From: an uncultured Bacillota bacterium
GTDB lineage: Bacteria; Sysuimicrobiota; Sysuimicrobiia; Sysuimicrobiales; Segetimicrobiaceae
Direction: 5' to 3'
DNA length: 64,000 nucleotides
Assembly (NCBI GenBank): GCA_963804645.1
Contig: CAWDRG010000009.1
Span: 716,693-780,692 of the forward strand
Below the pieces are notes generated by a model. That model saw only the letters and a list, made by a program, of their open reading frames with translations. It did no database searches and had not been told where the DNA came from. Below are positions 8,711 through 58,721 of the stretch, in pieces; the first letter of the stretch is position 1, and every line of letters starts with the position of its first letter. A program made the position numbers and the translations under genes.

Positions 8711-8756
8711 GGGTCCCGCCGTCGCGGCGTTCGCGGCGCGCGGCGGCCGACGTATC

Positions 8757-10379: not shown

Positions 10380-10389
10380 ACCGCGCCTC

Positions 10390-11226: not shown

Positions 11227-11236
11227 CGCCGGACCC

Positions 11237-12121
11237 TCATTCGGCCTCGACCAGCCGCAGGTATAGAACATACAGCAGCACGAGCACGCCGAGCGATACC
11301 ACGACCATCGCCGCGGCGCTCCCCATCTGGAAGAACTGGAACGCCGCTTTGAAGATGTGCACGCTGAGCATGTCCGTCGCGTTTCCGGGCCCGCCCCCGG
11401 TCATCACAAAGGGCTCGGCGAACAGGCGAAACGCCTCCATCGCGCGCAACAGCGCGGCGACCAGCAGCGTGTCGAAGATCACCGGCACCGTCACGCGGGT
11501 AAAGCACCCCCACCGCGAGGCCCCGTCGAGCTGCGCCGCCTCGTAGAGTGCGCCCGGCACGGTTTCGAGCGCGGACAGGCTCAGCAGAAACGTGAACGGC
11601 GTCCAGTGCCAGACGTCCATCAGCATCACCGAAACGAGCGCCAGCCGCGTGCTGGTCAGCCAGGCCACGCCCGGCAGCCCGAGTAGCCGCAGGCCGGCGT
11701 TGATTGGACCGAGGGTGTCGTTGAAGAGGATGTACCAGATGAGTCCGACCACTGCCGGCGTGATTACCATCGGGGAGATCACGACCGTCTTCAGCAGGTC
11801 GTTGGCGCGCGCGCCCCCGTGAACGAAGACGGCGAGCGCGAGCCCCAGGGTGACCTCGACCACCGTGACGACGACCATGAAGCCCAGCGTGCGGCCGATC
11901 GAGCCGACAAACGCGGGATCGGCCGCCAGTTGGAGGTAGTTCTGCACGCCGGCGAACACCGGCGACGACTGCTCTTGCAGGTTCCAGGTCGTCAGGCTGA
12001 GGTAAATCGTGTACAGCGCCGGCAGGATGCGCCCAACGACCAGGTACGCCATCCCGGGTACGAGGAAAAACCACAGCGCGAGATCTCGCCGCCGCCGGAC
12101 CGAGACCGCCGGCGCAATCAC
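11237..12121 (-). CDS. carbohydrate ABC transporter permease (MalF-like)
   Basis: TM-rich with the ABC permease signature (YEAAQLDGASRWGCFTRVTVPVI). GTG start overlaps the stop of the upstream paralog C gene (GTGA), indicating translational coupling. Confidence 0.8.
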   Translation of the reverse strand: MIAPAVSVRRRRDLALWFFLVPGMAYLVVGRILPALYTIYLSLTTWNLQEQSSPVFAGVQNYLQLAADPAFVGSIGRTLGFMVVVTVVEVTLGLALAVFVHGGARANDLLKTVVISPMVITPAVVGLIWYILFNDTLGPINAGLRLLGLPGVAWLTSTRLALVSVMLMDVWHWTPFTFLLSLSALETVPGALYEAAQLDGASRWGCFTRVTVPVIFDTLLVAALLRAMEAFRLFAEPFVMTGGGPGNATDMLSVHIFKAAFQFFQMGSAAAMVVVSLGVLVLLYVLYLRLVEAE

Positions 12122-42538: not shown

Positions 42539-42827
42539 GCCGCTCCCCGCCGCGCGCGCGCTCGACGCGCTCGAAGAGGGCGGCGAACTCGGCCTCGGTG
42601 CGCTCGGTCACCTCCTCCGCCATCTCGGCGTAGCGGCGTCCCTCACCCGCCTTGATCTGGATGTTGGAGAGGACGCGGCCCTCGAGCTCGCGGAGGAGTG
42701 CGAGCACGTCGTCGGCCGGGACGCTCCCCCAGTCGCCCGCGAGCACGCGGTCCACGAACTCGTCGAGCGGGCGGGCGTCGTCTTCGCACACCTGCGCGTA
42801 CAGCTCCCACAGGCGCGCGCTCATTCG
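42531..42827 (-). CDS. hypothetical acidic small protein (98 aa)
   Basis: ATG overlaps the upstream debranching-enzyme stop (ATGA). Acidic, helical sequence. Confidence 0.45.
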   Translation of the reverse strand, partial: RMSARLWELYAQVCEDDARPLDEFVDRVLAGDWGSVPADDVLALLRELEGRVLSNIQIKAGEGRRYAEMAEEVTERTEAEFAALFERVERARGGERPT

Positions 42828-44809
42828 CCTGCGCCCCCGAGTTCCCACGCCTCGAGCAGCGCGGCGACGCTCCACGCCTGGGCGATGCATCCGGCCGCGC
42901 CGTACGGGGACGCTCCCTCGAAGATCTCGCTCACGGTGCCGAGTCCCGCCTCCAGCAGGTGCGCCCGGAACGGCTCGATGAGGCGGCGCGCCGCCGCGCG
43001 GTCGCCGGTCGCGCGCACGAGCGCCGTCGCGTACGGGCCGAGCCACCACGCCCAGACCGTGCCCTGGTGGTACGCCTCGTCCCGGGAGACGACCCCGCCC
43101 CGGTACCGGCCGCGGTAGGCCGGGTCGTCGGGGGCGAGCGACCGCAGGCCGAACGGCGTCAGCAGCTTCGCTCCCACCGCGCCAAGTACCGCGCGGGCCG
43201 CCGGCCCGTCGACCAGCGCGTGGGGCAGCGAGAGCGCGAGCAGCTGGTTCGGGCGGAGCGACCGGTCGGGCGTGCCGTCCGGCGCGATGACGTCGTACAG
43301 GTAGCCGCCGGCGTCGTAGAAGAACGCGCCCGAGAACGCGCGGCGAACCGCGGCCGCGCCGCTGGCGTACGCGGTGCCGTCCCGGCCGAGCATCTCCGAC
43401 CAGCGCGCCGCGACACACAGCAGTTCGTGCCAGAGCGCGTTCAGGTCGACCGCTTTGCCCATGCGCGGCGTGATCGCGCGGCCGTTCACGCGGGCATCCA
43501 TCCAGGTCAGGGCGAGCCCGGGCTCGCCCGCGGTCAGCAGGCCGTCGGCCGGATCGACGCGGATGCCGTGGCGCGTGCCGGACCGGTACCGTTCCGCGAT
43601 CTCCCGGATCGCCGGGTACACTCGCTCGAGGAGCTCGCGGTCCCACACGCGCGCGAGGTACCGGTCGAGCGCGTGCGCGTACCACAACGCCGAATCCGCG
43701 CTCGTGTACTCCGGAGGGGCGCCGTCGTCCGGGAACCGGTTCGGCAGCATGCCCTCGCTCACCACGTCGGCGAAGGAGCGGAGGATCTCGCGCGCGTCGT
43801 CGAGCCGGCCGGTGGCGAGCGTAAGCCCGGGCAGCGAGATCATGGCGTCGCGCCCCCAGTCCTCGAACCAGTGGTAGCCGGCGATCACCGAGTGCCGGCC
43901 GGCGCCCTGGACGAGGAACGCGTCCGCGGCGAGGACGAGCGCGTCGCGGAGCCCGCCGGGCCCCGGCAGCGTCGTGGGATCGCGCGGGAGCGCGCCGGCG
44001 CGGTCGATCAGCGTCTGCTGCCGGCGGCGCTCGTCTTCGTAGGTGGTGCCGGCCGCGGACGCGTCCGGCTCCGCGGAGACGCGCAGGGTGAGGTCCTCTC
44101 CCGGCTCGAGCGACGCCTCGAACACGCCGGGCACGTAGAGGTCTTCGATCGCGTCGAGCCCGCGGTCGCGCTCGACGCGGTGCAGGACGCGCCAGTACCA
44201 CGCCGGGGAGTCCGCGAAGCGGCCGCGGTCCACCGTGAGCGTGTACGGGACGGCGCCGGGCCAGGGCGTGACGCGGATGCCGCCCGGGATCGGCGCGACG
44301 TCGAACTGCCACCCGGGGTCGCCGTAGGTGTGCGTGTGGTGATCGCGCTCGGTCAGGTAGGGCCGGATCGCCATGCGCAGCGCCGGGCCGCCCGGGAGCA
44401 GCCGGTACCGGACGCAGGCGGTGTTCCGTCCGCGCGGCATCCAGACCGCCTTCTCGAGCACGGCGCCGGAGACCGCGAACGTCCAGACGGGAATCGAGCC
44501 GTCGAGCCGGAAGCCCGCGAGCGAGCGGTACCCCTCCGGGTCGATCGTCCCGTCGGCGTACTCGTTCGTCCCGAGCTCGACGAGGCGGCCGCGTCCATCG
44601 CGGAGATCGATCGTCTCGTCGACCTTCGCGACCAGCACGGTGCGGCGGACGGGCGGGGCGAGCGCGGCGACGAGGAGGCCGTGATAGCGGCGGGTGGTCG
44701 CGCCGGACACGGTCCCGGACGCGTAGCCGCCGATGCCGTTCGTGACGAGCCACTCGCGGCGGAGCGCCGCGTCGAGAAACGAGAGGAGGGAGTCCGGCAG
44801 GCTCAGCAT
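42821..44809 (-). CDS. glycogen debranching enzyme family protein (amylo-alpha-1,6-glucosidase, GDE N- and C-terminal domains)
   Basis: 662 aa. N-terminal GDE_N-like region (TNGIGGYASGTVSGATTRRYHGLL) and C-terminal (alpha/alpha)6-barrel region with GYHWFEDWGRD, typical of archaeal-type GDE/GH133. Confidence 0.8.
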   Translation of the reverse strand: MLSLPDSLLSFLDAALRREWLVTNGIGGYASGTVSGATTRRYHGLLVAALAPPVRRTVLVAKVDETIDLRDGRGRLVELGTNEYADGTIDPEGYRSLAGFRLDGSIPVWTFAVSGAVLEKAVWMPRGRNTACVRYRLLPGGPALRMAIRPYLTERDHHTHTYGDPGWQFDVAPIPGGIRVTPWPGAVPYTLTVDRGRFADSPAWYWRVLHRVERDRGLDAIEDLYVPGVFEASLEPGEDLTLRVSAEPDASAAGTTYEDERRRQQTLIDRAGALPRDPTTLPGPGGLRDALVLAADAFLVQGAGRHSVIAGYHWFEDWGRDAMISLPGLTLATGRLDDAREILRSFADVVSEGMLPNRFPDDGAPPEYTSADSALWYAHALDRYLARVWDRELLERVYPAIREIAERYRSGTRHGIRVDPADGLLTAGEPGLALTWMDARVNGRAITPRMGKAVDLNALWHELLCVAARWSEMLGRDGTAYASGAAAVRRAFSGAFFYDAGGYLYDVIAPDGTPDRSLRPNQLLALSLPHALVDGPAARAVLGAVGAKLLTPFGLRSLAPDDPAYRGRYRGGVVSRDEAYHQGTVWAWWLGPYATALVRATGDRAAARRLIEPFRAHLLEAGLGTVSEIFEGASPYGAAGCIAQAWSVAALLEAWELGGAGE

Positions 44810-44846
44810 CGCGCGCCGCGCGGCCGCCGGGACCCGCGGCGTCGCG

Positions 44847-45767
44847 CTAGTGGCCCTCGAGATAGCGCTCGACGTCCATCGCGGCCATGCAGCCCCAGCC
44901 CGCGGCCGTCACCGCCTGGCGGTACCGCTGGTCGTGCACGTCGCCCGCGGCGAACACCCCCGTGATGTTGGTCATCGTGTGCTCGCGAAGCCGCACGTAC
45001 CCCTGCTCGTCCAGTTCGACCTGGCCGCGGAACAGCTCGGTGTTCGGATGGTGGCCGATCGCGAGGAACAGCCCGTCCACGGGAAACTGCTCGACCGCGT
45101 TCGTGCGGAGGTCGCGCAGTGCGAGGCCCGTGACCTTGTCGTCCCCCAGCACGTCCTCGATGACCGTGTTCCAGCGCACACGGATCTTGCCGTGGTTGAG
45201 CGCGCGCTCGGCCATGATTTTGCTCGCCCGGAACGCCTCGCGGCGGTGGAGAATCGTCACGCGGGTCGCGAACTTCGTGAGTACCAGTGCCTCCTCCATT
45301 GCCGAGTCCCCGCCGCCGACGACCGCGACCTCCTTGTTGCGGAAGAAGAACGCGTCGCACGGCGCGCACGAGGAGACGCCGTGGCCGATCAGGCGCTGCT
45401 CGTTCGGCAGCCCGAGCCAGTTGGTGCCCGCCCCGGTCGCGATGATCACCGACTCGCTGGTGAGCGTCCGGCCCCCCACGGCGATCTCGAACGGGCGCCG
45501 GCGCAGCTCGACCGCGGTCGCGTCCTCGTCGATGAAGTCGACTTCGAAGCGCTCCGCCTGCCGGCGCATGACCTCCATCAGCTCCGGCCCCTGGATGCCG
45601 TCCGCGAACCCCGGGAAGTTCTCGACGTCGGTCGTCATCGTGAGCTGCCCGCCGCGCTGGCTGCCCGAGATCACGAGCGGCCGCAGCTGCGCGCGGGCGG
45701 CGTAGACGGCCGCGGTCAGTCCCGCGGCGCCCGACCCGATGATGACCACCTTGAGCGTGTCCGCCAT
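44847..45767 (-). CDS. trxB: thioredoxin-disulfide reductase
   Basis: FAD motif GSGAAG, redox-active CAPC (SSCAPCD), NADPH motif GGGDSA. GGAGGTG SD. Confidence 0.9.
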   Translation of the reverse strand: MADTLKVVIIGSGAAGLTAAVYAARAQLRPLVISGSQRGGQLTMTTDVENFPGFADGIQGPELMEVMRRQAERFEVDFIDEDATAVELRRRPFEIAVGGRTLTSESVIIATGAGTNWLGLPNEQRLIGHGVSSCAPCDAFFFRNKEVAVVGGGDSAMEEALVLTKFATRVTILHRREAFRASKIMAERALNHGKIRVRWNTVIEDVLGDDKVTGLALRDLRTNAVEQFPVDGLFLAIGHHPNTELFRGQVELDEQGYVRLREHTMTNITGVFAAGDVHDQRYRQAVTAAGWGCMAAMDVERYLEGH

Positions 45768-45862
45768 GCCGTGCACCTCCCGGCGGGGGTGGTCCCGCCG
45801 CCTGCTTTCACAACGTGTCCGGCCCGCGAATTCTTCCCCGCCCGGGGAGGCCCGCCGCGCGA

Positions 45863-47311
45863 TCAGGCGCGGGCGGCGAGCACGCGGTGGTGCTGGACGA
45901 AGTTCGTCCGGCCCCGCGCTACGATCGGGACCGAGCCCATGATCACCACGGCGTCGCCGGGGCGCGCGAGGTGCCGGTGGAGCAGCTCCCGGTCGACCGC
46001 CCGGATCATCGCCTCCGTGCTGTGCTGGAACGGCACGACGAGCGGCCGGACGCCCCAGCAGACGCTCAGGAGGCGCGCCACGCGCTCGTCCTCCGTGCAC
46101 GCGAGGGCGGGGACCGAGGGGCGGAGGCGCGAGATCGCCCGGGCCGCCCGGCCGGTCGTCGTCAGCACGACGATCATGCGCACCCGGCAGTCCTCGGCGA
46201 TCTCCTGCGCGGCGGACGCGATCGACTGTAAGAGTGTCGGGCGCGCGAGCGGGCCGGGACCGTCGAAGCGCGTGCCGGCCTCGACCGCCTGCGCGATCCG
46301 CACCATCGTCGCGACGGCCTGCACGGGGTACCGGCCCACCGCGGTCTCGGCCGAGAGCATCACCGCGTCGGTGCCGTCGAGGATCGCGTTCGCAACGTCG
46401 GAGGTCTCGGCGCGCGTCGGGCGCTCGTCCCGCACCATCGACTCGAGCATCTGCGTCGCGGTGATCACCGGGACGCCCCGGTCGTTCGAGACGCGGATGA
46501 TCCGCTTCTGGAGCAGCGGGACCTGCTCCGGCGGCAGCTCGACGCCGAGGTCGCCGCGGGCGACCATCACGGCGTCGGACGCGGCGACGATCTCCTCGAG
46601 GTTGCCGATCGCCTCGAAGCGCTCGAGCTTCGAGACGATCGGGACCGACCGCCCGAGCCGGCGCATCACGCGCCGGGCGTTCTGGAGGTCCCGGGCCGAG
46701 CGGACGAAGCTCAGCGCCACGAAGTCGACGCCCGCGCGCAGTCCGTAGCGAAGGTCCGCGAGGTCCTTCGGCGTGAGCGACGGGCCGCGCAGCGGCACCC
46801 CCGGCAGGTTGACGCCCTGGTGGCTGTCCAGCACGCCGCCCTCGACGACGCGGCACCGGACCTCCTGGCCTGCGCGGCCGAGTGCGAGGAGCTCGATCAT
46901 CCCATCGCGCAGCAGGATGCGCTGGCCGCGGCGGACGAGGCCGGTGAATCGGGGAAACGCGATCGGGATCCGCTCCGCGCCGCCGATCACGCGCCGCGTG
47001 GTCAGGATCACCTCGTGGCCCGGGACGAGGTGCACGGGATGCGCGAGGCGGCCCACCCGGATCTTCGGGCCCTGCAGGTCTTGCAGGATCGCGAGCGGCG
47101 CGTCGGCGCGGCGGGCGACGCTCCGGAGGCGCGCGATCAGGCGTCCGTGGTCGGTGCGTGCGCCGTGGGAGAAGTTGATCCGCGCGACGTCCATCCCGGC
47201 CGCGAGCAGGCGCTCGAGCACCTTCTCGCTGTCGCTCGCGGGGCCGATCGTCGCGACGACTTTCGTCCCGTGGGAAGTGATGGGGCGCGGTACCGCGTGC
47301 GCGCTCGGCAT
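45863..47311 (-). CDS. pyk: pyruvate kinase
   Basis: TKVVATIGPAS, MVARGDLGVE, and the C-terminal allosteric domain. GGAGGAG SD. Confidence 0.9.
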   Translation of the reverse strand: MPSAHAVPRPITSHGTKVVATIGPASDSEKVLERLLAAGMDVARINFSHGARTDHGRLIARLRSVARRADAPLAILQDLQGPKIRVGRLAHPVHLVPGHEVILTTRRVIGGAERIPIAFPRFTGLVRRGQRILLRDGMIELLALGRAGQEVRCRVVEGGVLDSHQGVNLPGVPLRGPSLTPKDLADLRYGLRAGVDFVALSFVRSARDLQNARRVMRRLGRSVPIVSKLERFEAIGNLEEIVAASDAVMVARGDLGVELPPEQVPLLQKRIIRVSNDRGVPVITATQMLESMVRDERPTRAETSDVANAILDGTDAVMLSAETAVGRYPVQAVATMVRIAQAVEAGTRFDGPGPLARPTLLQSIASAAQEIAEDCRVRMIVVLTTTGRAARAISRLRPSVPALACTEDERVARLLSVCWGVRPLVVPFQHSTEAMIRAVDRELLHRHLARPGDAVVIMGSVPIVARGRTNFVQHHRVLAARA

Positions 47312-47551
47312 CAGGAACCACTCCTCCCCGCGGCCGTCCGGGCTCGCGGGACGCGGACCCGCATCGTGCCGTTCCTGCGTGACGGTCCGGGCATGTGCCA
47401 TCGTCCCCACGACAGGTCTTCGCCGCGGGACCGCCCATTCCCGACCAGGCGGCGAATATTGTTGGCGCGGGTCGGGGGAGGAGCGCGGCGCGGGCGGATG
47501 CAATTGCAGGAAGGGCCGCGGTACGGCGCGTTCGGCGGCCGGGAGATGGGC

Positions 47552-47857
47552 ATGGCGATCATGGCGATCAGCGTCACCCCGGTGGGGACGGGGTCCCCGA
47601 GCGTGGGGGCCTACGTGGCGGAAGCGGTGCGGGTGCTCGAGGAGAGCGGCCTCCGGTACGAGCTGCGCGCGATGCACACCGAGGTCGAAGGGGATCTGGA
47701 ACGGCTGCTCGCGCTCGTGCCCGAGATCCACCGCGCGTGCTTCGCGCTCGGGGCCCAGCGCGTGTCCACCGTGATCAAGATCGACGAGCGCCGGGACGCC
47801 CCGTCGTCGATCGCGGGCAAAGTGCGGTCGGTCGAGCACCGCCGCCGGCGCGCGTAG
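47552..47857 (+). CDS. MTH1187/YkoF-family (DUF77) protein
   Basis: MAIMAISVTPVG...YELRAMHTEVEGDLERLLALV fits the DUF77 thiamine-binding/ion-tolerance fold. Start is chosen at the ATG with the best SD spacing. Confidence 0.6.
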   Translation: MAIMAISVTPVGTGSPSVGAYVAEAVRVLEESGLRYELRAMHTEVEGDLERLLALVPEIHRACFALGAQRVSTVIKIDERRDAPSSIAGKVRSVEHRRRRA

Positions 47858-47871
47858 GCGGCACCCGGGCG

Positions 47872-48483
47872 ATGGGCGGATTCGCCTCCGGGTGGCTCGA
47901 GCGCTGGTTCGAGCGCACCTACAAGATTCAGCCGATCGGCTCGGGCGGGTATATCCTGCGCATCGGGTTGATCCGTTATCGCGGTCCTCGCGTGGAGCTC
48001 GCCGACGGGACGGTCGTCACCGCGGGCGATACCGTGGGCGAGCTTCACATGGACAACGCGCGGGCGCAGGCCCTGCACCAGGAAGGGCACGGCGGCCTCA
48101 AATTCCGCCGCGAGGTCTTCCGGGCGCTGCCCGCGCTCGGGGCCGAGCTCTCGATGAAGCCGGAGTACGGACCGGTGCAGGCGTTCTGCGGTGCGAGCTT
48201 GTTCTGGCACGGGGCCGCCCGGGCCGGATTCGAGGACCGGCCGCTCCCGGCGTTCGAGCGGTGGTGGCTCACGTGGTGGGAGCGCCACTTGATGGCGAGA
48301 TACCATCCCGAGGGTCGACAGCGCCTCGACGAAGGAAATCGGACGGAACTGCGCCAGATCTGGATCAGCCGGAAGACGCTGCTGCGCTACGCGGAGGCGG
48401 CGGCGCGGCGCGGCGGGGCCGCGGACGGCGCGGCTGCCCCACAGAGTTCCGCGGAGGCCGGCGCGGACGACCGGGGCGGGTGA
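47872..48483 (+). CDS. hypothetical protein (Trp-rich, WW-ERH motifs)
   Basis: Clean ORF following the DUF77 gene. No confident family assignment. Confidence 0.45.
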   Translation: MGGFASGWLERWFERTYKIQPIGSGGYILRIGLIRYRGPRVELADGTVVTAGDTVGELHMDNARAQALHQEGHGGLKFRREVFRALPALGAELSMKPEYGPVQAFCGASLFWHGAARAGFEDRPLPAFERWWLTWWERHLMARYHPEGRQRLDEGNRTELRQIWISRKTLLRYAEAAARRGGAADGAAAPQSSAEAGADDRGG

Positions 48484-48535
48484 GCCGGCGGCGACGGTGT
48501 CGCCGGCCGCGGTGTGACGGGGACGGGCCGCTGCG

Positions 48536-49882
48536 CTACGCGGGGGCCGGTGCTTCGACCGGACGCGGCGGCGCAGCCGGCCGTGCCGTGGGGTGGCCGA
48601 TGCGCAGCGCCAGCCCGGCCGCGAGCAGGCAGAGCAGTCCGGAGCCGGTAAACGCCATCTGATAGCTCCCGAGCCAGGTGTGGACTAGCCCCGCGCCGTA
48701 CGCCGCGGTCGCGGCGCCCAGCTGGTGCGCGGCGAAGATCCATCCGTACATCACCGCGGCGTTCTCGCGGCCGAACAGATCCGCGGTGAGGCGCACGGTG
48801 GGCGGGACCGTCGCGACCCAGTCGAGCCCGTAGAAGACGGCGAACACGGCGAGCCCGATGACGCTCGGGCCGAACGAGTTCAGCCCGAACGGTAGGAACA
48901 CGAGCTGGGCGCCGAAGGCGACCGGAAGAAATACGAGCGACAGCCCCCGCAGCCCGTAGTACCAGCACAGGAGATAGCGGCTGTTCAGGCGGTCGGACAG
49001 CCATCCCGAGAACGTCGTGCCGAACATGTCGAAGACGCCGATCGCGGCGAGCAGGCCCGCGGCGGTGACCTCGGGGATGCCGACGTCCATGCACGCCGGG
49101 ATCAGGTGCGTCCCGATCAACCCGTTGGTGCTCGCGCCGCAGATGTAGAAGGTGCCGGCCAGCAGCCAGAAATCCCGCGAGCGCAGCCCCGTGCGGAGCG
49201 CACCGAACGCGGCGCCGGCCGCGCGGCGCGGCGGCGGGGGCGGCTCGGGACCGTCCGTCGGCGCGCCGAACGGCCGCAGGCCGACGTCGCGGGGGGCGTT
49301 GCGCATGAAGATCGCGACGAGCGGGATCGCGACGAGGGCCGCCGCCATGACGACCAGCGCCGCGGTGCGCCATCCGCTGGTCACGACGAGCCGGGCCAGT
49401 CCGGGGAGGAACACCAGCTGCCCGGTCGCGCCGCTCGCCGTGAGCATGCCCAGTACGAGGCCGCGGCGCTTGTCGAACCAGCGGTTCGAGATCCACGCGC
49501 CCAGCACGCCCGCGACGGCTCCCGCGCCTGTCCCGACGACGAGGCCCCAGAGGAGATAGAGCTGCCACGCCGCGTGCATCTGCGTCGTGAGTCCCACGCC
49601 GATCGCGAGCAGGGACAGCGCGCCGAGCGCGACGTACCGGGCGCCGAAGCGATCCATCAGCGCCGCCGCGAACGGCCCCAGGAATCCGTACAGCAGCAGG
49701 TTGATCGAGACGGCGAGCGACACGGTGGCCCGGCTCCAGCCGAACTCCCGCTGGAGCGGGACGATGAGCACCCCGGGCGTCGAGCGGACCCCCGCGGCGA
49801 CGAGCAGCGTGAGGAACGTCGCGCCGAAGACGATCCACCCGTAGTGGATCCGGCCGCGGGCGATCGCGGGCGCGTTGATCAT
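48536..49882 (-). CDS. MFS transporter (oxalate/formate antiporter-like, 12 TMS)
   Basis: 448 aa. MFS motifs (GPFAAALMDRFGARY), 12 TM. Confidence 0.8.
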   Translation of the reverse strand: MINAPAIARGRIHYGWIVFGATFLTLLVAAGVRSTPGVLIVPLQREFGWSRATVSLAVSINLLLYGFLGPFAAALMDRFGARYVALGALSLLAIGVGLTTQMHAAWQLYLLWGLVVGTGAGAVAGVLGAWISNRWFDKRRGLVLGMLTASGATGQLVFLPGLARLVVTSGWRTAALVVMAAALVAIPLVAIFMRNAPRDVGLRPFGAPTDGPEPPPPPRRAAGAAFGALRTGLRSRDFWLLAGTFYICGASTNGLIGTHLIPACMDVGIPEVTAAGLLAAIGVFDMFGTTFSGWLSDRLNSRYLLCWYYGLRGLSLVFLPVAFGAQLVFLPFGLNSFGPSVIGLAVFAVFYGLDWVATVPPTVRLTADLFGRENAAVMYGWIFAAHQLGAATAAYGAGLVHTWLGSYQMAFTGSGLLCLLAAGLALRIGHPTARPAAPPRPVEAPAPA

Positions 49883-49907
49883 GCCGCCGCCGTCCTCGCC
49901 GCGTCCA

Positions 49908-50522
49908 TCACGCGCCCTCCAGGGCGGCCAGCCCGAATGCCGCGACGATCCCGCCGGAGACCACGTTGATCCAGCGCATCAGCGGGGCGCCGATCCGTCG
50001 GTGGAGCGCGCCGACCGCCGTGCTGAGGCACAGCCACCACGCGGCCGACCCGAGGAACGTCCCGGCGGTCAGCAGCGCCGCGTAGGCGGCGTTGGGACCG
50101 TTCGCCGGCGCGATCGCCGTGAAGATCGCCGCGAACATGAAGATCGTCATCGGGTTGGTGATCGTCAGGAGCACCGTGGACGCGTACGCGCCGAACCGGC
50201 TGTCCGCCGGCGCCGCGCCCGCCGCCTCGGACGGGCGCGGCGCGAACGCGGTGCGCGCGCCGAGATAGAGAAGCAGCAGGCCGCCGATGAGATGGAGCGG
50301 GCGGGCGTGGTGCACGAAGAACTGCGACAGCGCGGTCAGCCCGAATCCCGCGACGGCCGCGTAGAACGCGTCCGCGGTCGCCGCTCCGAGCCCCGAGACG
50401 AACCCGATGAGGCGCCCCTGCGTCAGGCTGCGGCGGATGCACAGCACCCCGATCGGCCCGACGGGCGCCGCGATGGAGGCGCCGACCAGGAACCCCTTCA
50501 CGAGCGTGGTCAGTTCGTGCAC
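49908..50522 (-). CDS. LysE/RhtB-family amino-acid exporter
   Basis: 204 aa, six TM, family N-terminus (LVKGFLVGASIAAPVGPIGVLCI). Confidence 0.8.
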   Translation of the reverse strand: MHELTTLVKGFLVGASIAAPVGPIGVLCIRRSLTQGRLIGFVSGLGAATADAFYAAVAGFGLTALSQFFVHHARPLHLIGGLLLLYLGARTAFAPRPSEAAGAAPADSRFGAYASTVLLTITNPMTIFMFAAIFTAIAPANGPNAAYAALLTAGTFLGSAAWWLCLSTAVGALHRRIGAPLMRWINVVSGGIVAAFGLAALEGA

Positions 50523-50552
50523 GCGCGCATCCCCGGACGATGACGTACCGCG

Positions 50553-51323
50553 CTAAACGCGCGGGGTGAGGCCGGGATTCCTCGTGTCGCCGCGCGGCGC
50601 GGGATCCAGCAGCTCGCGCAGCGGCACGACCTCGAACCCGCGGGCGCGCAGCCCGGCGATCATCTCGGGGAGCGCGTGCCGCGTGTTCTCCGGCGTCGAG
50701 GGGTGTCCGCCGCGGTCGTGCAGATTCACGATCGCGCCTTCGTGCGCCGCTCGGACGACGTGCACGGTCATCCGCGCGGCGGACGCCGCCGCGGCCCAGC
50801 CCTCGGAGCGCACGGACCAGAGCACCCGCGTCTCGCCGAGCTGCCCCGCCCGCACGTAGGCCGCCCAGTTGAAGGTGCCCCACGGCGGCCGGAAGTAGTG
50901 CGGGGCGGCGCCGACCGCATCGGCGATCTCCTGGGCGCCGCGGTCCACCGCGGCGATCGACGCGCCGGGGGTGAGCGTCCACAGGTGCCGGTGGTCGAAC
51001 GTGTGGTTTCCGACGTCGTGCCCGGCCGCGGCCACGCGCCGCGCGAGCGCGGGGTGCGACGCGACCTGGCGTCCCACCATGAAAAATGCCGCGCGGACGC
51101 CGGACGCCGCCAGCACGTCGAGGATCCGGGGCGTGTGCTCCGGGTCGGGGCCGTCGTCGAAGGTGAGCGATACCTGCGCGCGGCGCGGGCCGCGTTTGAC
51201 GACGCCGACCCTCAACCCGCCGGCGAGCGTCTGGGTGCCGATCGTGTACGCGAGCGCTCCCGCCGCGAGGACGGCGGCGGCGTCGAGGCCGAGCTGGACG
51301 GGGTCGCGAAGCGTGCGGGGCAC
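50553..51323 (-). CDS. polysaccharide deacetylase (NodB/CE4)
   Basis: TFDDGP, HTFDH, RPPWG motifs. Confidence 0.85.
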   Translation of the reverse strand: MPRTLRDPVQLGLDAAAVLAAGALAYTIGTQTLAGGLRVGVVKRGPRRAQVSLTFDDGPDPEHTPRILDVLAASGVRAAFFMVGRQVASHPALARRVAAAGHDVGNHTFDHRHLWTLTPGASIAAVDRGAQEIADAVGAAPHYFRPPWGTFNWAAYVRAGQLGETRVLWSVRSEGWAAAASAARMTVHVVRAAHEGAIVNLHDRGGHPSTPENTRHALPEMIAGLRARGFEVVPLRELLDPAPRGDTRNPGLTPRV

Positions 51324-51336
51324 GCGGTTCCGCCCG

Positions 51337-52491
51337 CTAGCCCTCGACGGCTTCCATGCGCCAGCGCGTGGACGTGCCCGCGGCCAGCAACAGCAGCCCG
51401 CCGCTCAGGTAAAACGGCGAGGAGGGGTTGGCCCACTGCCACAGGTAGCCGCCGACGAGGGGACCGATCACCCCGCCCATCCCCTCGATGGTCATCGCGA
51501 TCCCGAGTCCGGCGCCGCGGACGTCGTCCGGCAGGAGGCGCAGCAGGATGCTGTTCCAGGCGGGGAGGACGAACGCGTACGCGATGCCGATCCCCAAGAA
51601 ATCGAGCAGCAGCAGCGGCAGCGACTGGCAGAACGGCAGGGCGATCAGCAGCAGCGCGACCGCGGCCAGCCCGAGGCTGTAGGTCCGCCGCCGGCCGAAG
51701 CGGTCGCCGATCCGGCCGGCGCGCGCCATCAACGCGAGCGCGGTCCCCACGCTGAGGAGCAGGAGAAGAAACAACTCGCGCTCCTCGAGCCCGCGCACGT
51801 CCTCCAGGTACGGGACGATGATCGGGATCAGCACGCCGGCCGCGATGATCTGCGGGATGATGCTGGTCGCGAGCGCCGCGAGCGCCCGCATGACGGATGG
51901 CACCAGATGGCGGATGCTGGGGGTCGCGAGCCCTTTCGGCTCCGGCGCGCGCTTCGGCACCCGGAAGCCGAGCAGGGCCGCGGCGAGCAGCGGGATGATG
52001 AATACGCCGAGCGAGATCGGATGGGCGGCCCGGCTGATGAGCGTCGCGAGCCCGATGCCGGCCCCGCCCCCGAAGAACCACGTCGAGAACACGCGCCCGA
52101 GCGCGCCGCCGACCCCGGCGCCCGCGCCTTTGGTCAGGCGGGTGAGCGCGGCCGGCCATAGCGGTGCGGCCGCCGCCCCCATGACCGCGAGCGACACGAA
52201 CACCTGCCAGGTGGCCTGCGCGAGGACGAGGGCGACGAACGCGAAGAGGTACAGCCAGAGACCCCACAGCAGCATCGAGCGGGTCCCGACCCGGTCGACC
52301 GCCCATCCCGCGGCGAGCTTGAGCGCGACCTCGGCGAAGAAGTAGGTGGAGACCGCGGCCCCGGTCGTGCCCATCGGCCATCCGAACCGGATCGTCAGGA
52401 TCGTGGGGAGGAGGACGAACAGCAGCGCGCCGTGGACGAACTCCACCATGGCGATCGTAACCGCCAGGAGATCGGTTTCGCTTCGCAGCAT
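51337..52491 (-). CDS. MFS transporter
   Basis: 384 aa, 12 TM. Start ATG overlaps the upstream glycosyltransferase stop (TGATG). Confidence 0.75.
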   Translation of the reverse strand: MLRSETDLLAVTIAMVEFVHGALLFVLLPTILTIRFGWPMGTTGAAVSTYFFAEVALKLAAGWAVDRVGTRSMLLWGLWLYLFAFVALVLAQATWQVFVSLAVMGAAAAPLWPAALTRLTKGAGAGVGGALGRVFSTWFFGGGAGIGLATLISRAAHPISLGVFIIPLLAAALLGFRVPKRAPEPKGLATPSIRHLVPSVMRALAALATSIIPQIIAAGVLIPIIVPYLEDVRGLEERELFLLLLLSVGTALALMARAGRIGDRFGRRRTYSLGLAAVALLLIALPFCQSLPLLLLDFLGIGIAYAFVLPAWNSILLRLLPDDVRGAGLGIAMTIEGMGGVIGPLVGGYLWQWANPSSPFYLSGGLLLLAAGTSTRWRMEAVEG

Positions 52492-53667
52492 CAGGGGGTC
52501 GCGGACGGCAGCGCGAGCGGCTCGTGAGACGCCACCCCGCTGCGGTTCGCGATCCGGGCGAGTTGGGCGAGTTCGTCGACGACCACTTCCGCGGCATCCG
52601 GCCGGCCGAGCCCGGCGGCCGCCTGCCGCATCGCGGCCAGACGCTCAGGATGCGTCAGCAGCGTTTCGAGCTGGACGCGCAGCGCTCGTGGGCTGGCCGC
52701 GGCGAGCGCCGCGCCGCGCTCCACGAGGAACTGGGTGTTGCCCTCCTCCTGTCCGGGAATCGGCCGGAAGATCAGCATCGGCAGCTGCTTGGCGAGCGCC
52801 TCGCTGATCGTGACCCCCCCGGCCTTCGTGATGAGCAGGTCGCTCACCGTCATCAATTCCTCGACGTTGTCGATGTAGCCAAACACCTGGACGCGGTTGT
52901 CGGACCGCGCCATTTTCGCGCGCACATCGTCCTCGAGACGCCGGTCGTAGCCGCAGACGACGAGCGCCTGCACCGGGCGCGGGAACCGGCTGAGCATGCG
53001 CACGACGTCCCCGACCCCGCCGAGCATCGCGTACGCGCCGGCCATCACGAGGATCACCGGTACATCGGGCGCGAGGCCGAACTTTGCCATCAGCCGTCCG
53101 CGGTCGAGCGGGCGGATGAATTTCCGCTCGATCGGGAGCCCGGACACGACGATGTGGTCCGCCGGGATGCCGCGCTCGATGAGGCCGTCCCGCACCAGCC
53201 CGTTCGGCACGCAGTACCGCTCCACGCACGGGTGGATCCACTGGCTGTGGGTTACATAGTCGGTGATCACGGTGAGGCAGGGGACGGACGTCCGCCCCGC
53301 GATCTTGAGGTCGGACATCGAGCCCGCGGGCGTGCAGTGGACGCAGCAGACGGCGGCGGGCTGCTCCTCGTCGAGATACCGAGCGAGGCGGTCCATCCCC
53401 ATGCGGTTGATCGCGCGCTGCACGAACGAGTCCGGACGGATGTCGCCGGTCAGCTTGTAGAACATGCCGTACATCATGGGCGCGCGCCGGACGCTCGTGA
53501 TGTACGAGAACTTGGTGACCGCGTCGAATACCGGGTGCACGAAGCGGGCGAAGTAGTCCACCATCTCCGCGCGGCCGCCGGTCCGGGCTTCCCACTCCGC
53601 GGCGATGGCTTCCCCTGCGCGCTTGTGCCCGCCGCCGTAGTTGCAGGACAGGATCGAGAGCAGCATG
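52491..53667 (-). CDS. diacylglycerol glycosyltransferase (MGDG synthase / UgtP-like, GT28)
   Basis: N-terminal MLLSILSCNYGGGH (MGDG_synth domain) and a C-terminal GT-B domain (KAGGVTISEA). Confidence 0.8.
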
Positions 53668-53671
53668 CGGC

Positions 53672-54643
53672 TCACCCGCGCGCGCGTCCCTCGTCCGTGG
53701 TGGCCGGATCGGCGCGGCGGCGGCCGGCTCCGGCGAGCGCCGGCGGCGCTGGGTGGATCACCCGGATGCGCCGCGGCAGGATCGAGAGCGTGAACACCTG
53801 GCTGGCGTCGAGGAGGCTGCCGTCGACCTGCGCCTCGCGCTTCTGATCGAGGGTGATCGTGGCTTCGGCGCACCGCTGCACGCTGAGCTCGGGAACCGGG
53901 AGGCGCCGCAGGAGGCGGGCGGTCTTCCGGAATCGGCGGCCGCCGAGCTCCTGCAAGAGGTACAGGTCGAGCAGGCCGTCCGAGAGGCTGGGGGCCGGCA
54001 GCGCCTGCAGGCGCTCCCCGTACATCCGACCGTTCGCGGCCGCGATCATGGTCGCGCCGCCGCTGTACACTTGGTCGCCCACCCGGATCTCGACCTCGAA
54101 CGGATCGAAGCCGGACGACAGGAGCGCGAGCGCCGCGACGTAGTACACGGACCGGTTGCGCGCGAGCCGGTAGCGGGCGCGCAGCGTGTTCACCATCTTT
54201 ACGACCTGCACGTCGGCGCCGAGGCCGAAAATGTGCAGGAAGTGGCGGCCGTTCACGACGCCGACGTCGATCGCGCACTCCCGGCCGCGCCGCAGGACGG
54301 CGATCGCCTTCTCCGGATCCTTCGGGATGCCGAGGGAGCGGACCATTTCGTTGCCGGTCCCGCACGGGATGATGCCGAGCGGGAGCGCCGAGCCGCTTTG
54401 GATGATCCCGTTCACGGCGCCGTTGATCGTCCCGTCGCCGCCGAGCACGACGACGCGGTCGAACTTCGACCCGTCGCGCCTGAGCGCCGCGGCGAGGAGG
54501 GTCGCCGTCGCCTCGCCCGTCGGGGACACGACGAGGTCGTAGTCATGCCCGGCCCGCTTGAGCGCGTTGGTGAGGAGCGGGAGCGCGTCGCGCGAGCGTC
54601 CCCCACCCGAACGGAGATTCGCGACGACTAATGTGGCCGGCAT
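53672..54643 (-). CDS. diacylglycerol kinase-family lipid kinase (DAGK_cat; YegS/BmrU-like)
   Basis: GGDGT motif (VVLGGDGTINGAV), GTGN. AAGGAG SD. Five nt upstream of the ugtP-like gene. Confidence 0.8.
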   Translation of the reverse strand: MPATLVVANLRSGGGRSRDALPLLTNALKRAGHDYDLVVSPTGEATATLLAAALRRDGSKFDRVVVLGGDGTINGAVNGIIQSGSALPLGIIPCGTGNEMVRSLGIPKDPEKAIAVLRRGRECAIDVGVVNGRHFLHIFGLGADVQVVKMVNTLRARYRLARNRSVYYVAALALLSSGFDPFEVEIRVGDQVYSGGATMIAAANGRMYGERLQALPAPSLSDGLLDLYLLQELGGRRFRKTARLLRRLPVPELSVQRCAEATITLDQKREAQVDGSLLDASQVFTLSILPRRIRVIHPAPPALAGAGRRRADPATTDEGRARG

Positions 54644-54948
54644 CGCATCACTCCTTCACGATGCCCGCGGGGAGACACGGCGTGGTCGAACGGGAGGCGG
54701 TCATAACCGCGCTCATTATGTTCCAGAGTGGCACGGAGTGTCAAACCACACATGCTTTATCATTCGCGCCGCACCGCGCAATCCCCCCTCAGCGCACGAG
54801 CGCCCCGCCGAGGGAAACGCAGGCGGCACGTAGAACGGGAAACACGTTGCGCGGCGCCGTTCGTCGGCACCGCATTCGAGTCGAGGCGCGGAGGTGCGGT
54901 GTGGCGTACGCAGGAGGCGCGTCCGAGTTCGGGCCGCGGCCGGTCGCG

Positions 54949-56640
54949 ATGGGGCGCCGCGGCATGGTCGCGTCCGCCAACCCGCTCGCGACGCAGGCCG
55001 GGCTGCGCATGTTCGCGCAGGGCGGGAACGCCGTGGACGCCACAGTGGCGACCGCGGCCGCCGTCACCGTCGTGGAACCGTACTTTTCATCGGCCGGCGG
55101 CATCGGGATCGCGGTGCTGTCGCTGCCGGACGGTAGTACGCGCACGCTGAACTTCATGGGCCCCAGCCCGCGCGCGGCACGCCCGGAGCAGTTCAACGTC
55201 AAGACGCAGGACAGCGGGATCCTCGCGCCCATGATCCCGGGCAACGTCGCCGGGTGGGGCCGGCTGCTCGATGAGTTTGGCAGCCTGCCGTTGGCCCAGG
55301 TGCTTGAGCCCGCGATCGAGCTGGCGGAGCGCGGGATGCCGGTGACGCTGTTCGACTATGTGCGGACGACGCAGGCGCTGGACCGGCTGACGTGGCCGGA
55401 TGCCGCGCGCACGTTTCTCCGCGACGGCCAGCCGTACCAGCCCGGGGAGATTCTGCGGCAGCCGGGCCTGGCGAGGACGCTTCGCACGCTCGCGTCGGAG
55501 GGCTGGATGGCGTTCTATCGCGGCAGCCTGGCCCGTACGATCGGCGCGTACTTCGCCGGCCACGGGGGCCTGATCACCGAAGAGGATCTGCGTACCTATC
55601 CGGACGCGATCACCTGGGAAGCGCCGGTCACGGCCCGGTACCGCGGCTTCGAGATACGGACGACGCCGCCCCCGACCAGCGCCGTGCAGGTGCTGCAGAC
55701 GCTTCGGATCCTCGAGGCGTTCGATCTCCATGACGAGGACCCGCTCGGCCCCGACGCGCTCGCGACGATCGCCGAGGCGATCCGCCTCGCGCGGATGGAC
55801 TGTCACAAATACGTCGCCGATCCCCGGTTTGTGGACGTGCCCCTCGCCTGGATGATCTCGGATGAGCGGATCGATGAGCTGCGGGCGGAGGTCGTGAAGC
55901 GTGTGAAGGCGGCGCGCCGCCGCGGCGCGCGCAACGGGAACGCCGGCCGCCGCCCTGCCGCGCGCATCCGCCGCGCCCGCCGGGCGCCGGAGCGTTCGAC
56001 GACGCATCTCGGCGCCGCGGATGCCAGCGGGCTCGCCGTCAACATCACGCAGACGGTCGGGAGCTCCTTCGGGTCGGGCGTCGTGGTCGGGGACACGGGG
56101 ATCACCATGAACAACGGGCACCATTGGTGCACGCTCATTCCCGGGGACCCGCGCGTGCTCGCGCCGGATAAGCGCCGGGAGTCGCCGACGTCGCCGGTCC
56201 ACGGGTTCGCGGTCCACGAGGCTCCGGTGGCGCCGACCCACTCGTTCAACGTCGACCCGCACGGGCCGGCGCAGGGGTCGCGGGGTCCACGCCTCGCGTT
56301 TCTGGTCGGCACGCCCGGCTCCTACAGCATTCCGCAGACCACCGCCCAGGTCATCGTCGGGCTCGTCGAGTACGGCCGGAACATTCAGGACGCCATCGCG
56401 GCGCCGAGGTTTAGATGGAAGGACGACGTCGGGGATCCGCTGCCTCCGGACACGCTGCTCTTCGAAGGACGGTTCGCGCCGGCGACCAGGCGCGCGCTGG
56501 CGGCCCGTGGGTACAAGATCGAGGTGCTCGAGGATTGGTCGATGCGGGTCGGCGGCGCCCAGGGGATCGTGTTTCGTGATGACGGTTGGCTGCAGGGCGG
56601 CGCCGATCCCAGACGCAACGGGTATGCGATGGGCTGGTAG
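54949..56640 (+). CDS. ggt: gamma-glutamyltransferase
   Basis: GGT family. Thr nucleophile context ERSTTHLGAADASGLAVNITQTVGSSFGSG. No signal peptide detected. Start is uncertain (54949 or 54964). Confidence 0.8.
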   Translation: MGRRGMVASANPLATQAGLRMFAQGGNAVDATVATAAAVTVVEPYFSSAGGIGIAVLSLPDGSTRTLNFMGPSPRAARPEQFNVKTQDSGILAPMIPGNVAGWGRLLDEFGSLPLAQVLEPAIELAERGMPVTLFDYVRTTQALDRLTWPDAARTFLRDGQPYQPGEILRQPGLARTLRTLASEGWMAFYRGSLARTIGAYFAGHGGLITEEDLRTYPDAITWEAPVTARYRGFEIRTTPPPTSAVQVLQTLRILEAFDLHDEDPLGPDALATIAEAIRLARMDCHKYVADPRFVDVPLAWMISDERIDELRAEVVKRVKAARRRGARNGNAGRRPAARIRRARRAPERSTTHLGAADASGLAVNITQTVGSSFGSGVVVGDTGITMNNGHHWCTLIPGDPRVLAPDKRRESPTSPVHGFAVHEAPVAPTHSFNVDPHGPAQGSRGPRLAFLVGTPGSYSIPQTTAQVIVGLVEYGRNIQDAIAAPRFRWKDDVGDPLPPDTLLFEGRFAPATRRALAARGYKIEVLEDWSMRVGGAQGIVFRDDGWLQGGADPRRNGYAMGW

Positions 56641-57082: not shown

Positions 57083-57535
57083 ATGCAGAAGTCGATCACG
57101 AGGCTCGTCGTGTGCGTCCTACTGGTCTTTGCTACGGCAAGCATGAGCTCGGCGGCCACAATGCAGCCCTCGCTGTACGATCGTTTGGGCGGCCTGACGG
57201 CCATCAAGGCCGTGGTCGACCAGTTTGTCACGAACGTGGGTGCCGACAACAAGATCAACAAGTTTTTCACGGCGACCGTCGCGGATCCGCAGCGCCTCGC
57301 CACCTTCAAGACGAACCTCGTGAACCTGATCTGCCAGGGCACCGGCGGCCCGTGCAAGTACACCGGCAAGACCATGAAGGCTGCGCACGAGGGCATGGGA
57401 ATCACCGACGCGGACTTCAACGCGCTCGTCGGCGATCTCGTCGCCGCGCTGAACAAGTTCAAGGTGAGCGCCCAGAACCAGAAGGACCTGCTCGCGCTGC
57501 TTGGTCCCATGAAGGGCGACATCGTCGGACAGTAA
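57083..57535 (+). CDS. group I truncated hemoglobin (trHbN-like) with N-terminal signal peptide
   Basis: LYDRLGG...AIKAVVDQFVTNVGADNKINKFF...QGTGGPCKYTGKTMKAAHEGMGI matches 2/2 hemoglobin group I. Preceded by the hydrophobic signal MQKSITRLVVCVLLVFATASMSSAA. Confidence 0.8.
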   Translation: MQKSITRLVVCVLLVFATASMSSAATMQPSLYDRLGGLTAIKAVVDQFVTNVGADNKINKFFTATVADPQRLATFKTNLVNLICQGTGGPCKYTGKTMKAAHEGMGITDADFNALVGDLVAALNKFKVSAQNQKDLLALLGPMKGDIVGQ

Positions 57536-57616: not shown

Positions 57617-58357
57617 ATGACCGGGCTGCTCGGAACCGGGGCAACGCGCGCCGCCGATCTCAACCTGCTGGCGCAGCTCGCGATGGCGGCGGCCCTGACG
57701 GTGGGGATGTTTCTCGCGCGAGCCGGGCGCTTTCGCGCGCACGCTTGGACCCAGTCGACGGTGCTGCTGCTGAACCTCGTCGCGATCGGCAGCGTCATGC
57801 TGCCGTCGTTCCGCCGGCAGGTCGCGCCCTCAGTGCCGTCGGGCCTGCACGATCCGTATTACGTGGTGGCGACGATCCACGCGGGGCTCGGGACCGTGGC
57901 AGAGCTGCTGGGACTCTACGTCATACTCGTGGCGGGGACCAAGATGTTGCCGAGCCGTTTGCGCTTCCGGAACTACAAGTTGTGGATGCGGACGACGTTG
58001 GGTCTTTGGTGGGCGGTTGTGCTCCTTGGCATCGGTGTGTACACCCTCTGGTATGTGGTGCCGTCGCCTGCCGCGACGCCCCAGGCTTCGCAGCCGGCGA
58101 TGATGATGGTGTCATTGAAGAACTTTGAGTTCACCCCCACGCAGATCACGGTTGCTGTCGGGACCACGGTGCAGTGGACGGATACCGGCGGACGTCATCA
58201 AATCGTCGCGGATGACGGTTCGTTCAAGTCCGACGTGCTGTTGTCGGGCGCCACGTTTCAGCAGAAGTTCGACAAGGCCGGCACATACCTGTACTACTGC
58301 CAGTTTCACGGCGGACCGAAGGGCCAGGACATGTCCGGGTCGGTTGTGGTGAAATAG
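57617..58357 (+). CDS. membrane-anchored cupredoxin (DUF420-like 4-TM domain fused to a plastocyanin/azurin-like domain)
   Basis: Four N-terminal TM helices. C-terminal type-1 copper ligand set (GRHQIV ... YYCQFHGGPKGQDMSG: His, Cys, His, Met). Confidence 0.75.
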   Translation: MTGLLGTGATRAADLNLLAQLAMAAALTVGMFLARAGRFRAHAWTQSTVLLLNLVAIGSVMLPSFRRQVAPSVPSGLHDPYYVVATIHAGLGTVAELLGLYVILVAGTKMLPSRLRFRNYKLWMRTTLGLWWAVVLLGIGVYTLWYVVPSPAATPQASQPAMMMVSLKNFEFTPTQITVAVGTTVQWTDTGGRHQIVADDGSFKSDVLLSGATFQQKFDKAGTYLYYCQFHGGPKGQDMSGSVVVK

Positions 58358-58646: not shown

Positions 58647-58721
58647 GCCGGCGTAGCTCAGCGGTAGAGCAGCTCATTCGTAATGAGCAGGTCATCGGTT
58701 CAAATCCGATCGCCGGCTCCA
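58647..58721 (+). tRNA. tRNA-Thr (anticodon CGT)
   Basis: Manual cloverleaf: acceptor GCCGGCG/CGCCGGC, D-arm GCTC-AGCGGTA-GAGC, anticodon arm GCTCA-TTCGTAA-TGAGC, T-arm ATCGG-TTCAAAT-CCGAT, discriminator T, encoded CCA. Confidence 0.9.

Follow-up and report, generated by a model that had tools for sequence, protein, structure and literature searches.

The window, a stretch of 64,000 nt from an uncultured Bacillota bacterium (contig CAWDRG010000009.1 of assembly GCA_963804645.1, forward-strand positions 716,693 to 780,692), holds six co-directional open reading frames (ORFs) on the minus strand, which span 48536-54643 as read from the sequence, and a convergent plus-strand gene for a YkoP-domain protein beyond their downstream end. 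Four of the six, together with the YkoP gene, recur as a unit in related bacteria, and we consider it moderately likely that these five genes (lipid kinase, glycosyltransferase, LtaA-like transporter, deacetylase and YkoP) act together to make and flip an amino-sugar membrane glycolipid. The features of the locus, from the upstream end of the operon, are as follows.

54715-54744, minus strand: promoter-like site, TTGACA-18 nt-CATAAT, with 11 of 12 consensus matches
53672-54643, minus strand: lipid kinase of the DagK (YegS-BmrU-Rv2252) family, 323 amino acids (aa)
52491-53666, minus strand: GT28 glycosyltransferase of the MGDG-synthase/UgtP family, 391 aa
51337-52491, minus strand: LtaA-like transporter of the major facilitator superfamily (MFS), 384 aa
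50553-51323, minus strand: carbohydrate esterase family 4 (CE4, NodB-homology) deacetylase, 256 aa, GTG start
49908-50522, minus strand: LysE/RhtB-family exporter, 204 aa, GTG start, LysE match of 84 bits
48536-49882, minus strand: second MFS transporter, of the oxalate/formate and monocarboxylate type, 448 aa
47869-48483, plus strand: YkoP-domain gene (PF22790), 204 aa, convergent with the operon

At the junctions, 5 nt separate the kinase from the glycosyltransferase, the stop codon of the glycosyltransferase and the start codon of the first MFS gene share 1 nt (TGATG), and the remaining gaps are 13 nt (first MFS to CE4), 30 nt (CE4 to LysE) and 25 nt (LysE to second MFS). An earlier note on this DNA had described six tightly packed minus-strand genes and given a family name to each product; the coordinates and the three junctions that it listed (5 nt, TGATG, 13 nt) were confirmed, and all six products score above the Pfam gathering thresholds of the families concerned (DAGK_cat and YegS_C, MGDG_synth and Glyco_tran_28_C, MFS_1, Polysacc_deac_1, LysE, and MFS_1 again). 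Next to the block lie a divergent gamma-glutamyltranspeptidase gene on one side and the convergent YkoP gene on the other. The promoter-like site precedes the kinase start by about 70 nt and is the sole sigma-70-like site in 47800-55200, where shuffled sequence gave an expectation of 0.3; it is a consensus match only. Four terminator-like matches were found in the block, all of them intragenic and not above the number found in shuffles (2.1 +/- 1.7), and the space between the convergent ends of the operon and the YkoP gene shows no conspicuous hairpin (z-score 0.65).

To see which of the genes belong together, we examined the neighbourhoods of CE4 homologues in order of decreasing CE4 identity to the window. 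All homologues of at least 50% identity with a readable context follow a UgtP-like glycosyltransferase; the exception is L094, where the CE4 gene lies 44 nt from the contig end and its upstream side is unreadable. The arrangements are given below, with DagK for the kinase, GT for the glycosyltransferase and a double colon for a fusion.

L001, metagenome contig, CE4 97% identical: six-gene block, products 96-100% identical to those of the window
L089, metagenome contig, CE4 78% identical: six-gene block
L090, CE4 72% identical: DagK-GT-MFS-CE4, then convergent AHSA1, AHSA1, ArsR and YkoP
L003-L005, CE4 71% identical: GT-CE4, with a convergent YkoP gene 26 nt downstream
L006, CE4 63% identical: DagK-GT-MFS-CE4, then five unrelated genes, with YkoP 5.6 kb off
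L091, Armatimonadota metagenome-assembled genome (MAG), CE4 55% identical: DagK-GT-MFS-CE4, then convergent YkoP
L008, Armatimonadota MAG, CE4 53% identical: DagK-GT-(CE4::YkoP)
L092 and L093, CE4 about 50% identical: (PAP2::GT)-MFS-(CE4::YkoP)

Close relatives of the window are MAGs, and the next nearest are Armatimonadota. The kinase gene directly precedes that of the glycosyltransferase in L001, L006, L008, L089, L090 and L091, while L092 (5225-6850) and L093 (4955-6811) have no DagK gene and their glycosyltransferase bears an N-terminal PAP2 (lipid phosphate phosphatase) domain. The MFS gene stands immediately 3' of the UgtP-family glycosyltransferase in the window, in L006 and in L089-L093. 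As a control we used 80 generic CE4 loci of 30-49% identity, taken from a metagenome scan that caught generic CE4 motifs. A UgtP-like glycosyltransferase was found within 4 kb in 16 of the 80, and a YkoP domain in four, including L031 and L050. The former is a contig of 39% GC with a GT-(CE4::YkoP) arrangement, and the latter (8735-12325) a contig of 54% GC with GT-CE4-YkoP-GT, in which the N-terminal helix of the CE4 protein is strongly hydrophobic. With such different base compositions, the trio of glycosyltransferase, CE4 and YkoP crosses very different lineages. The second UgtP-like glycosyltransferase of L050 suggests a two-sugar headgroup, like that of UgtA and HexS in Clostridioides difficile.

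The CE4 and YkoP domains are fused in many other genomes, and at least 50 of the best 150 cluster representatives from a library of 1.84 billion proteins are full-length CE4::YkoP fusions; the profile behind this count took in the CE4 half (430 positions), and the count measures fusions, not the size of the YkoP family. Many of the CE4, glycosyltransferase and YkoP cluster representatives have longest contigs of equal size, which is indirect evidence of co-location. A search of genome contigs with the glycosyltransferase protein alone returned a single weak match in Burkholderiales. Judged by these neighbourhoods, the conserved unit is made up of the kinase (or PAP2), the glycosyltransferase, the LtaA-like MFS, CE4 and YkoP, in at least two deep lineages. 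The pairing of glycosyltransferase and deacetylase, on which the earlier note had built, is non-random, as the linkage is kept in every readable CE4 homologue of 50% identity or more.

The same comparison does not favour the idea, also taken from the earlier note, that all six genes serve one pathway, with LysE and the second MFS as additional exporters of the lipid or of its head group. The short gaps of 30 and 25 nt, the common strand, the lack of a predicted terminator between the genes and the six-gene order retained in L001 and L089 all speak for it. Against this, LysE and the second MFS are confined to the window, L001 and L089 and are absent from L003, L006, L008 and L090-L093, and both belong to families that transport small solutes; the second MFS scored 142 bits against the SfMCT model (cut-off 320) and 84 bits against TIGR00890. 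The interval between CE4 and YkoP, which holds these two genes in the window (48484-50552), is occupied in L090 (10718-11978) by an ArsR gene and a pair of AHSA1 genes, and in L006 (10742-16337) by genes for a glyoxalase, a GGDEF protein, an AHSA1 protein, an AraC protein and a 2-hydroxyacid dehydrogenase; it is a gap of 0.7 kb in L091 and empty in L003. Since the slot holds unrelated genes in L006 and L090, we read LysE and the second MFS as lineage-specific passengers, probably co-transcribed with the unit, and regard a six-gene pathway as highly improbable. The functional unit would rather consist of the four conserved genes and of YkoP, which the earlier note had overlooked, and of its flippase and exporter candidates the first MFS stands as LtaA-like, while the other two are restricted to the window and its two nearest relatives.

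The glycosyltransferase matches MGDG_synth (PF06925) with 87.9 bits and Glyco_tran_28_C with 49.3 bits. Its matches in the PDB are Bacillus subtilis UgtP (9wde, E 3.6e-47) and the plant enzyme MGD1 (4wyi, E 3.7e-31), and the N-terminal GGGH motif along with the ITKAGG and PGQEEGN motifs align with both. No transmembrane segment is present. From this we assign it to the UgtP/YpfP family, as a member and not as an equivalog. The kinase matches DAGK_cat (100.5 bits) and YegS_C (51.1 bits), and passes the TIGR00147 model for YegS/Rv2252/BmrU lipid kinases with 139.6 bits against a cut-off of 118.65. It is soluble, contains the GGDGT nucleotide motif (VLGGDGT in the translation), and its closest relatives in the PDB are kinases of the DgkB/BmrU type.

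For the first MFS protein the top NCBIfam family is LtaA (NF047396), with 92.2 bits and E 3e-26 over the full length, and LtaA is likewise the top family match of each MFS that we read in the related units. In the PDB search LtaA (6s7v) was found at E 5.4e-23, with the next match only at 1e-9. The headgroup pocket of LtaA has been described as formed by E32, R35, D68, W127 and W150 (PMC8866510). These align to E17, H20, E54, W112 and W138 of the window protein, which gives three identical residues and two conservative changes. The two glutamates and two tryptophans are invariant in four orthologues, while position 20 is an arginine in the Armatimonadota orthologue of L091. Hence this protein is LtaA-like, not a generic MFS transporter, and a candidate glycolipid flippase.

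The deacetylase matches Polysacc_deac_1 (PF01522) with 112.9 bits. The TFDDG, HTxxH, RPPWG and LHD motifs are invariant across 37 CE4 homologues, and motif 4 reads R-x-E-G-(W/L/F/Y) in place of DxxDW, with R172, E174 and G175 invariant; as far as the alignment goes, the metal and catalytic motifs are intact. An N-terminal hydrophobic helix is conserved among the homologues and would anchor the enzyme to the membrane. We tried to read its orientation from the positive-inside rule and dropped the argument, as the flank charges are mixed, with the C-terminal flank the more positive in 11 of 39 sequences. In other lineages YkoP is fused to the C-terminus of the enzyme, and YkoP by itself lacks a signal peptide; for this reason we place the CE4 domain on the cytoplasmic side and infer that deacetylation would precede flipping.

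These family assignments also fit an ordinary UgtP-LtaA-DgkB pathway as in the lipoteichoic acid synthesis of Firmicutes, where glucosyl-diacylglycerol is made and then flipped by LtaA while the kinase recycles diacylglycerol, and in which the CE4 enzyme would act elsewhere, on peptidoglycan or on a surface polymer containing N-acetylglucosamine (GlcNAc). In Staphylococcus aureus ypfP and ltaA are paired in one operon, which the overlapping glycosyltransferase and MFS genes of the window recall, and the top matches are indeed UgtP, LtaA and DgkB-type kinases. In addition, the closest named relatives of the CE4 protein are peptidoglycan or chitin deacetylases, and the JGI label of its homologues is peptidoglycan GlcNAc deacetylase. 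However, in loci that lack kinase and MFS (L003-L005, L050, L031) CE4 still accompanies the glycosyltransferase, and the fusion of CE4 to YkoP, which has neither export signal nor transmembrane segment when it stands alone, speaks against an extracellular wall enzyme. Neither the window nor any of the loci read contains an LtaS-like gene. We therefore consider this explanation rather unlikely, and the context suggests that "peptidoglycan deacetylase", the routine annotation both of CE4::YkoP fusions and of the stand-alone CE4 proteins, is a misnomer.

Further we wanted to learn what YkoP might contribute to the five-gene unit. The protein matches PF22790 with 111.3 bits (gathering score 27), and in its stand-alone form we found no transmembrane segment or signal peptide. 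A relaxed scan of 43 YkoP sequences detected no second Pfam family, and the literature search on ykoP and on ykoN, which we take to adjoin ykoP in B. subtilis, returned nothing useful on the function of YkoP. D46, E58, H60, Y100, R152 and R168 are invariant polar residues, which suggests that YkoP is an enzyme. An AlphaFold2 model built on the 43-sequence alignment reached a predicted local distance difference test (pLDDT) score of 90 and a predicted template modelling (pTM) score of 0.82, and its only structural neighbours have the GNAT fold, for example the teicoplanin acyltransferase (4mfj, 4q36); Foldseek puts this fold at the top of its ranking, but not significantly. YkoP is thus perhaps a GNAT-like acyltransferase, a lead that we judge more apt to fail than to hold. 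Further, we speculate that YkoP might be a new family of N-acyltransferases that re-acylates the amine freed by CE4 with a longer chain, so that the trio, found across uncultured soil lineages, Armatimonadota and low-GC bacteria, would make N-acyl-hexosaminyl diacylglycerols for export by an LtaA-type flippase; this we hold to be doubtful, with a modest chance of being right. If true, it would give the YkoP domain its first function and provide a genetic basis for the N-acyl-glucosaminyl glycolipids of thermophiles, where such lipids have long been known.

A glycosyltransferase, a deacetylase and a GNAT-like protein in one unit also mirror mycothiol synthesis, which uses the same logic, and a weak match to BshA was obtained (E 0.0013). 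The genes could then make a soluble amino-sugar metabolite, such as a thiol of the bacillithiol or mycothiol kind, by glycosyltransferase, deacetylase and acyltransferase or ligase steps, and no lipid would be involved. The glycosyltransferase, however, belongs to the MGDG-synthase family, whose acceptors are lipids, and it is accompanied by a lipid kinase or PAP2, a homologue of a lipid flippase and a membrane-anchored CE4 protein, and we find a soluble product hardly credible.

For the five-gene unit we propose the following pathway. At the cytoplasmic face the glycosyltransferase would transfer an N-acetyl-hexosamine, probably GlcNAc from UDP-GlcNAc, to diacylglycerol or a glycosyl-diacylglycerol, and the membrane-anchored CE4 enzyme would strip the acetyl group to leave a free amine. 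YkoP would act as partner of the deacetylase, either in re-acylation of the amine or in presentation of the lipid, and the LtaA-like transporter would carry the completed glycolipid across to the outer leaflet. Either the kinase or, elsewhere, the PAP2 domain fused to the glycosyltransferase might set the balance of diacylglycerol and phosphatidic acid that feeds the pathway. DagK and PAP2 both act at this diacylglycerol/phosphatidic acid node, and this is our main argument for a glycerolipid as acceptor. The product would be similar to glucosaminyl (GlcN)-diacylglycerol, as the earlier note had supposed. The literature matches for "GlcN-DAG" were discarded, as they concerned Glc(n)-DAG and were irrelevant.

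Several observations weigh against this proposal. The glycosyltransferase scores 288.4 bits against NF010135, the model for the UgtP/YpfP diglucosyl-diacylglycerol synthase, below the equivalog cut-off of 500, and the first MFS, at 92.2 bits, is far under the LtaA equivalog cut-off of 450. UgtP, the closest characterised relative of the glycosyltransferase, takes UDP-glucose, and no residue discriminating UDP-GlcNAc from UDP-glucose as donor was seen in the glycosyltransferase when aligned to UgtP and MGD1. A diacylglycerol kinase uses up the presumed acceptor, and its reaction runs opposite to that of the PAP2 domain found in other lineages. The trio of L003-L005 lacks kinase and MFS and is set among hopanoid and isoprenoid genes. 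As for YkoP, the profile found no relative among the PDB sequences, and the fold similarity is weak and not significant (best Foldseek E 0.026, TM at most 0.4). The canonical coenzyme A pyrophosphate motif (Q/R-x-x-G-x-G/A) was not seen in the region inspected, which leads from the model strand 122-125 to the helix 128-145 and has the sequence GFEDRPLPAF.

The surroundings of L003-L005 raise the question whether the sugar goes to a hopanoid polyol (bacteriohopanetetrol) or to some other lipid without glycerol, in which case the glycosyltransferase and CE4 would stand in for HpnI and HpnK to form a glucosaminyl hopanoid. Here the trio, which is the one nearest to that of the window, is flanked by genes for squalene-hopene cyclase, for HpnC/D/E-like proteins and for type 2 isopentenyl diphosphate (IPP) isomerase, with IspG opposite. 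In L003 (1-12461), and also in L004 and L005, one flank carries the squalene-hopene cyclase, two SQS_PSY genes, an HpnE-like amine oxidase, the type 2 IPP isomerase, which is fused to YjbQ, and an RND permease; IspG is on the other flank. A GT28-CE4 pair also adjoins HpnJ (TIGR03471, 742 bits) in L015 and L072, where the UgtP-like GT28 and CE4 proteins (L015, 8805-12033; L072, 10001-14827) are 37-44% identical to those of the window. HpnJ is a radical S-adenosylmethionine enzyme that turns glucosaminyl-bacteriohopanetetrol, its known substrate (PMC12324291), into the cyclitol ether. The pair may substitute for HpnI and HpnK in these two organisms, and for some relatives a hopanoid acceptor has to be taken seriously.

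For the window itself a tblastn search with the hopanoid and isoprenoid genes of L003 and the HpnJ of L015 found no match. The window has a DagK-family kinase and related units have a PAP2::GT fusion, both of them enzymes of diacylglycerol and phosphatidate, and the hydrophobic pocket of LtaA has been described as binding acyl chains (PMC8866510). With no hpn genes present and DagK or PAP2 as partners, we set the hopanoid acceptor aside for the window, where it seems unlikely to apply, and keep to a glycerolipid as the presumed acceptor of the five-gene unit.

Downstream of the operon, the gene order in 42821-48483 agrees with that of L090 (11979-17622), where YkoP is followed by a Thiamine_BP-domain gene and then by three more. 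These three are a GH15-like glycoside hydrolase, a pyruvate kinase and a thioredoxin-reductase-like protein in both, their mutual order being compared loosely. The shared order indicates that the entire neighbourhood is vertically inherited chromosome and not a mobile island. The G+C content is about 0.73 at 42-52 kb of the window and drops to 0.60-0.66 past 56 kb, and a tRNA-Thr gene (CGT) is located at 58647-58721. Just upstream of it, inspection of the translations by eye gave two further assignments, 57083-57535 as a small secreted ORF resembling a globin and 57617-58357 as a membrane protein whose C-terminus is cupredoxin-like.

To our knowledge the genetics of only two amino-sugar glycolipid pathways have been resolved, both from 2023 onwards. 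The earlier note had called the operon not a textbook one, which is half true, as operons of this kind have been described since that year. The enzyme logic that it proposed, in which an N-acetyl-hexosamine is added and its amine then exposed, has experimental precedent in HexSDF and GpgSDF (PMC10128005, PMC12713373). In C. difficile, HexS, of the MGDG-synthase family, and HexD, a polysaccharide deacetylase, make aminohexosyl-hexosyl-diradylglycerol by way of an N-acetyl intermediate (PMC10128005, PMC11898633). Like HexSDF, the operon of the window joins a glycosyltransferase of the MGDG-synthase family to a CE4-type deacetylase and a candidate flippase, a likeness that is drawn from the families and the published description. 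In HexSDF the flippase HexF is MprF-like, whereas the window has an LtaA-like MFS and no MprF-like (AglD/UPF0104) match among the six products. HexSDF is also controlled by the adjacent two-component system HexRK, for which the window has no adjacent counterpart. Conversely, the DagK-family kinase and the YkoP partner of the window are both missing from the published description of HexSDF. An intracellular HexD is among the alternatives that its authors consider (PMC10128005).

Compared with the ypfP(ugtP)-ltaA genes of S. aureus and the DgkB of its lipid cycle, the window likewise has a UgtP-family glycosyltransferase followed by an LtaA-type MFS, in which one glutamate and both tryptophans of the pocket are kept (PMC8866510), and a soluble DagK-family kinase. 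The similarity is remote and does not reach the equivalog cut-offs, and in the specificity-setting pocket R35 is replaced by histidine and D68 by glutamate. Neither a deacetylase nor YkoP belongs to the S. aureus system, and in the window no LtaS was seen.

GpgSDF of Pseudomonas aeruginosa shares with the window the logic of synthase, deacetylase and flippase, and its product carries a free glucosamine amine (PMC12713373). GpgS and GpgD make GlcN-phosphatidylglycerol via GlcNAc-phosphatidylglycerol, and GpgD is predicted to be cytoplasmic (PMC12713373). Unlike the window, that system uses a GT4 glycosyltransferase, a COG3233 deacetylase and an AglD2/YbhN flippase, and its acceptor is phosphatidylglycerol. 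In the HpnI/HpnK/HpnJ route, too, GlcNAc is put on a membrane lipid and a deacetylase frees the amine (PMC12324291), but the NCBIfam models of the three enzymes find no match among the window proteins, and the window has no hopanoid genes.

In NodC/NodB/NodA, where NodB is a CE4 enzyme, in LpxC/LpxD and in the teicoplanin deacetylase and acyltransferase, GlcNAc is deacetylated and its amine then receives a longer acyl chain. The predicted fold of YkoP is weakly like that of acyl-CoA N-acyltransferases, although no sequence relationship to the acyltransferases of these systems was detected, and acylation is hypothetical here.

Amino-sugar glycolipids reduce the negative charge of the membrane, and those of C. 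difficile give resistance to daptomycin and bacitracin (PMC10128005). The loci described here suggest that the chemistry of glycosyltransferase and deacetylase occurs widely among uncultured soil bacteria and Armatimonadota, where it seems to be wired to an LtaA-type flippase and to enzymes acting at the diacylglycerol/phosphatidate node. They also place the uncharacterised YkoP domain, which is fused to CE4 in dozens of protein clusters, in a context that can be tested. What is new with respect to the known systems is the LtaA-type flippase, the enzyme at the diacylglycerol/phosphatidic acid node and YkoP.

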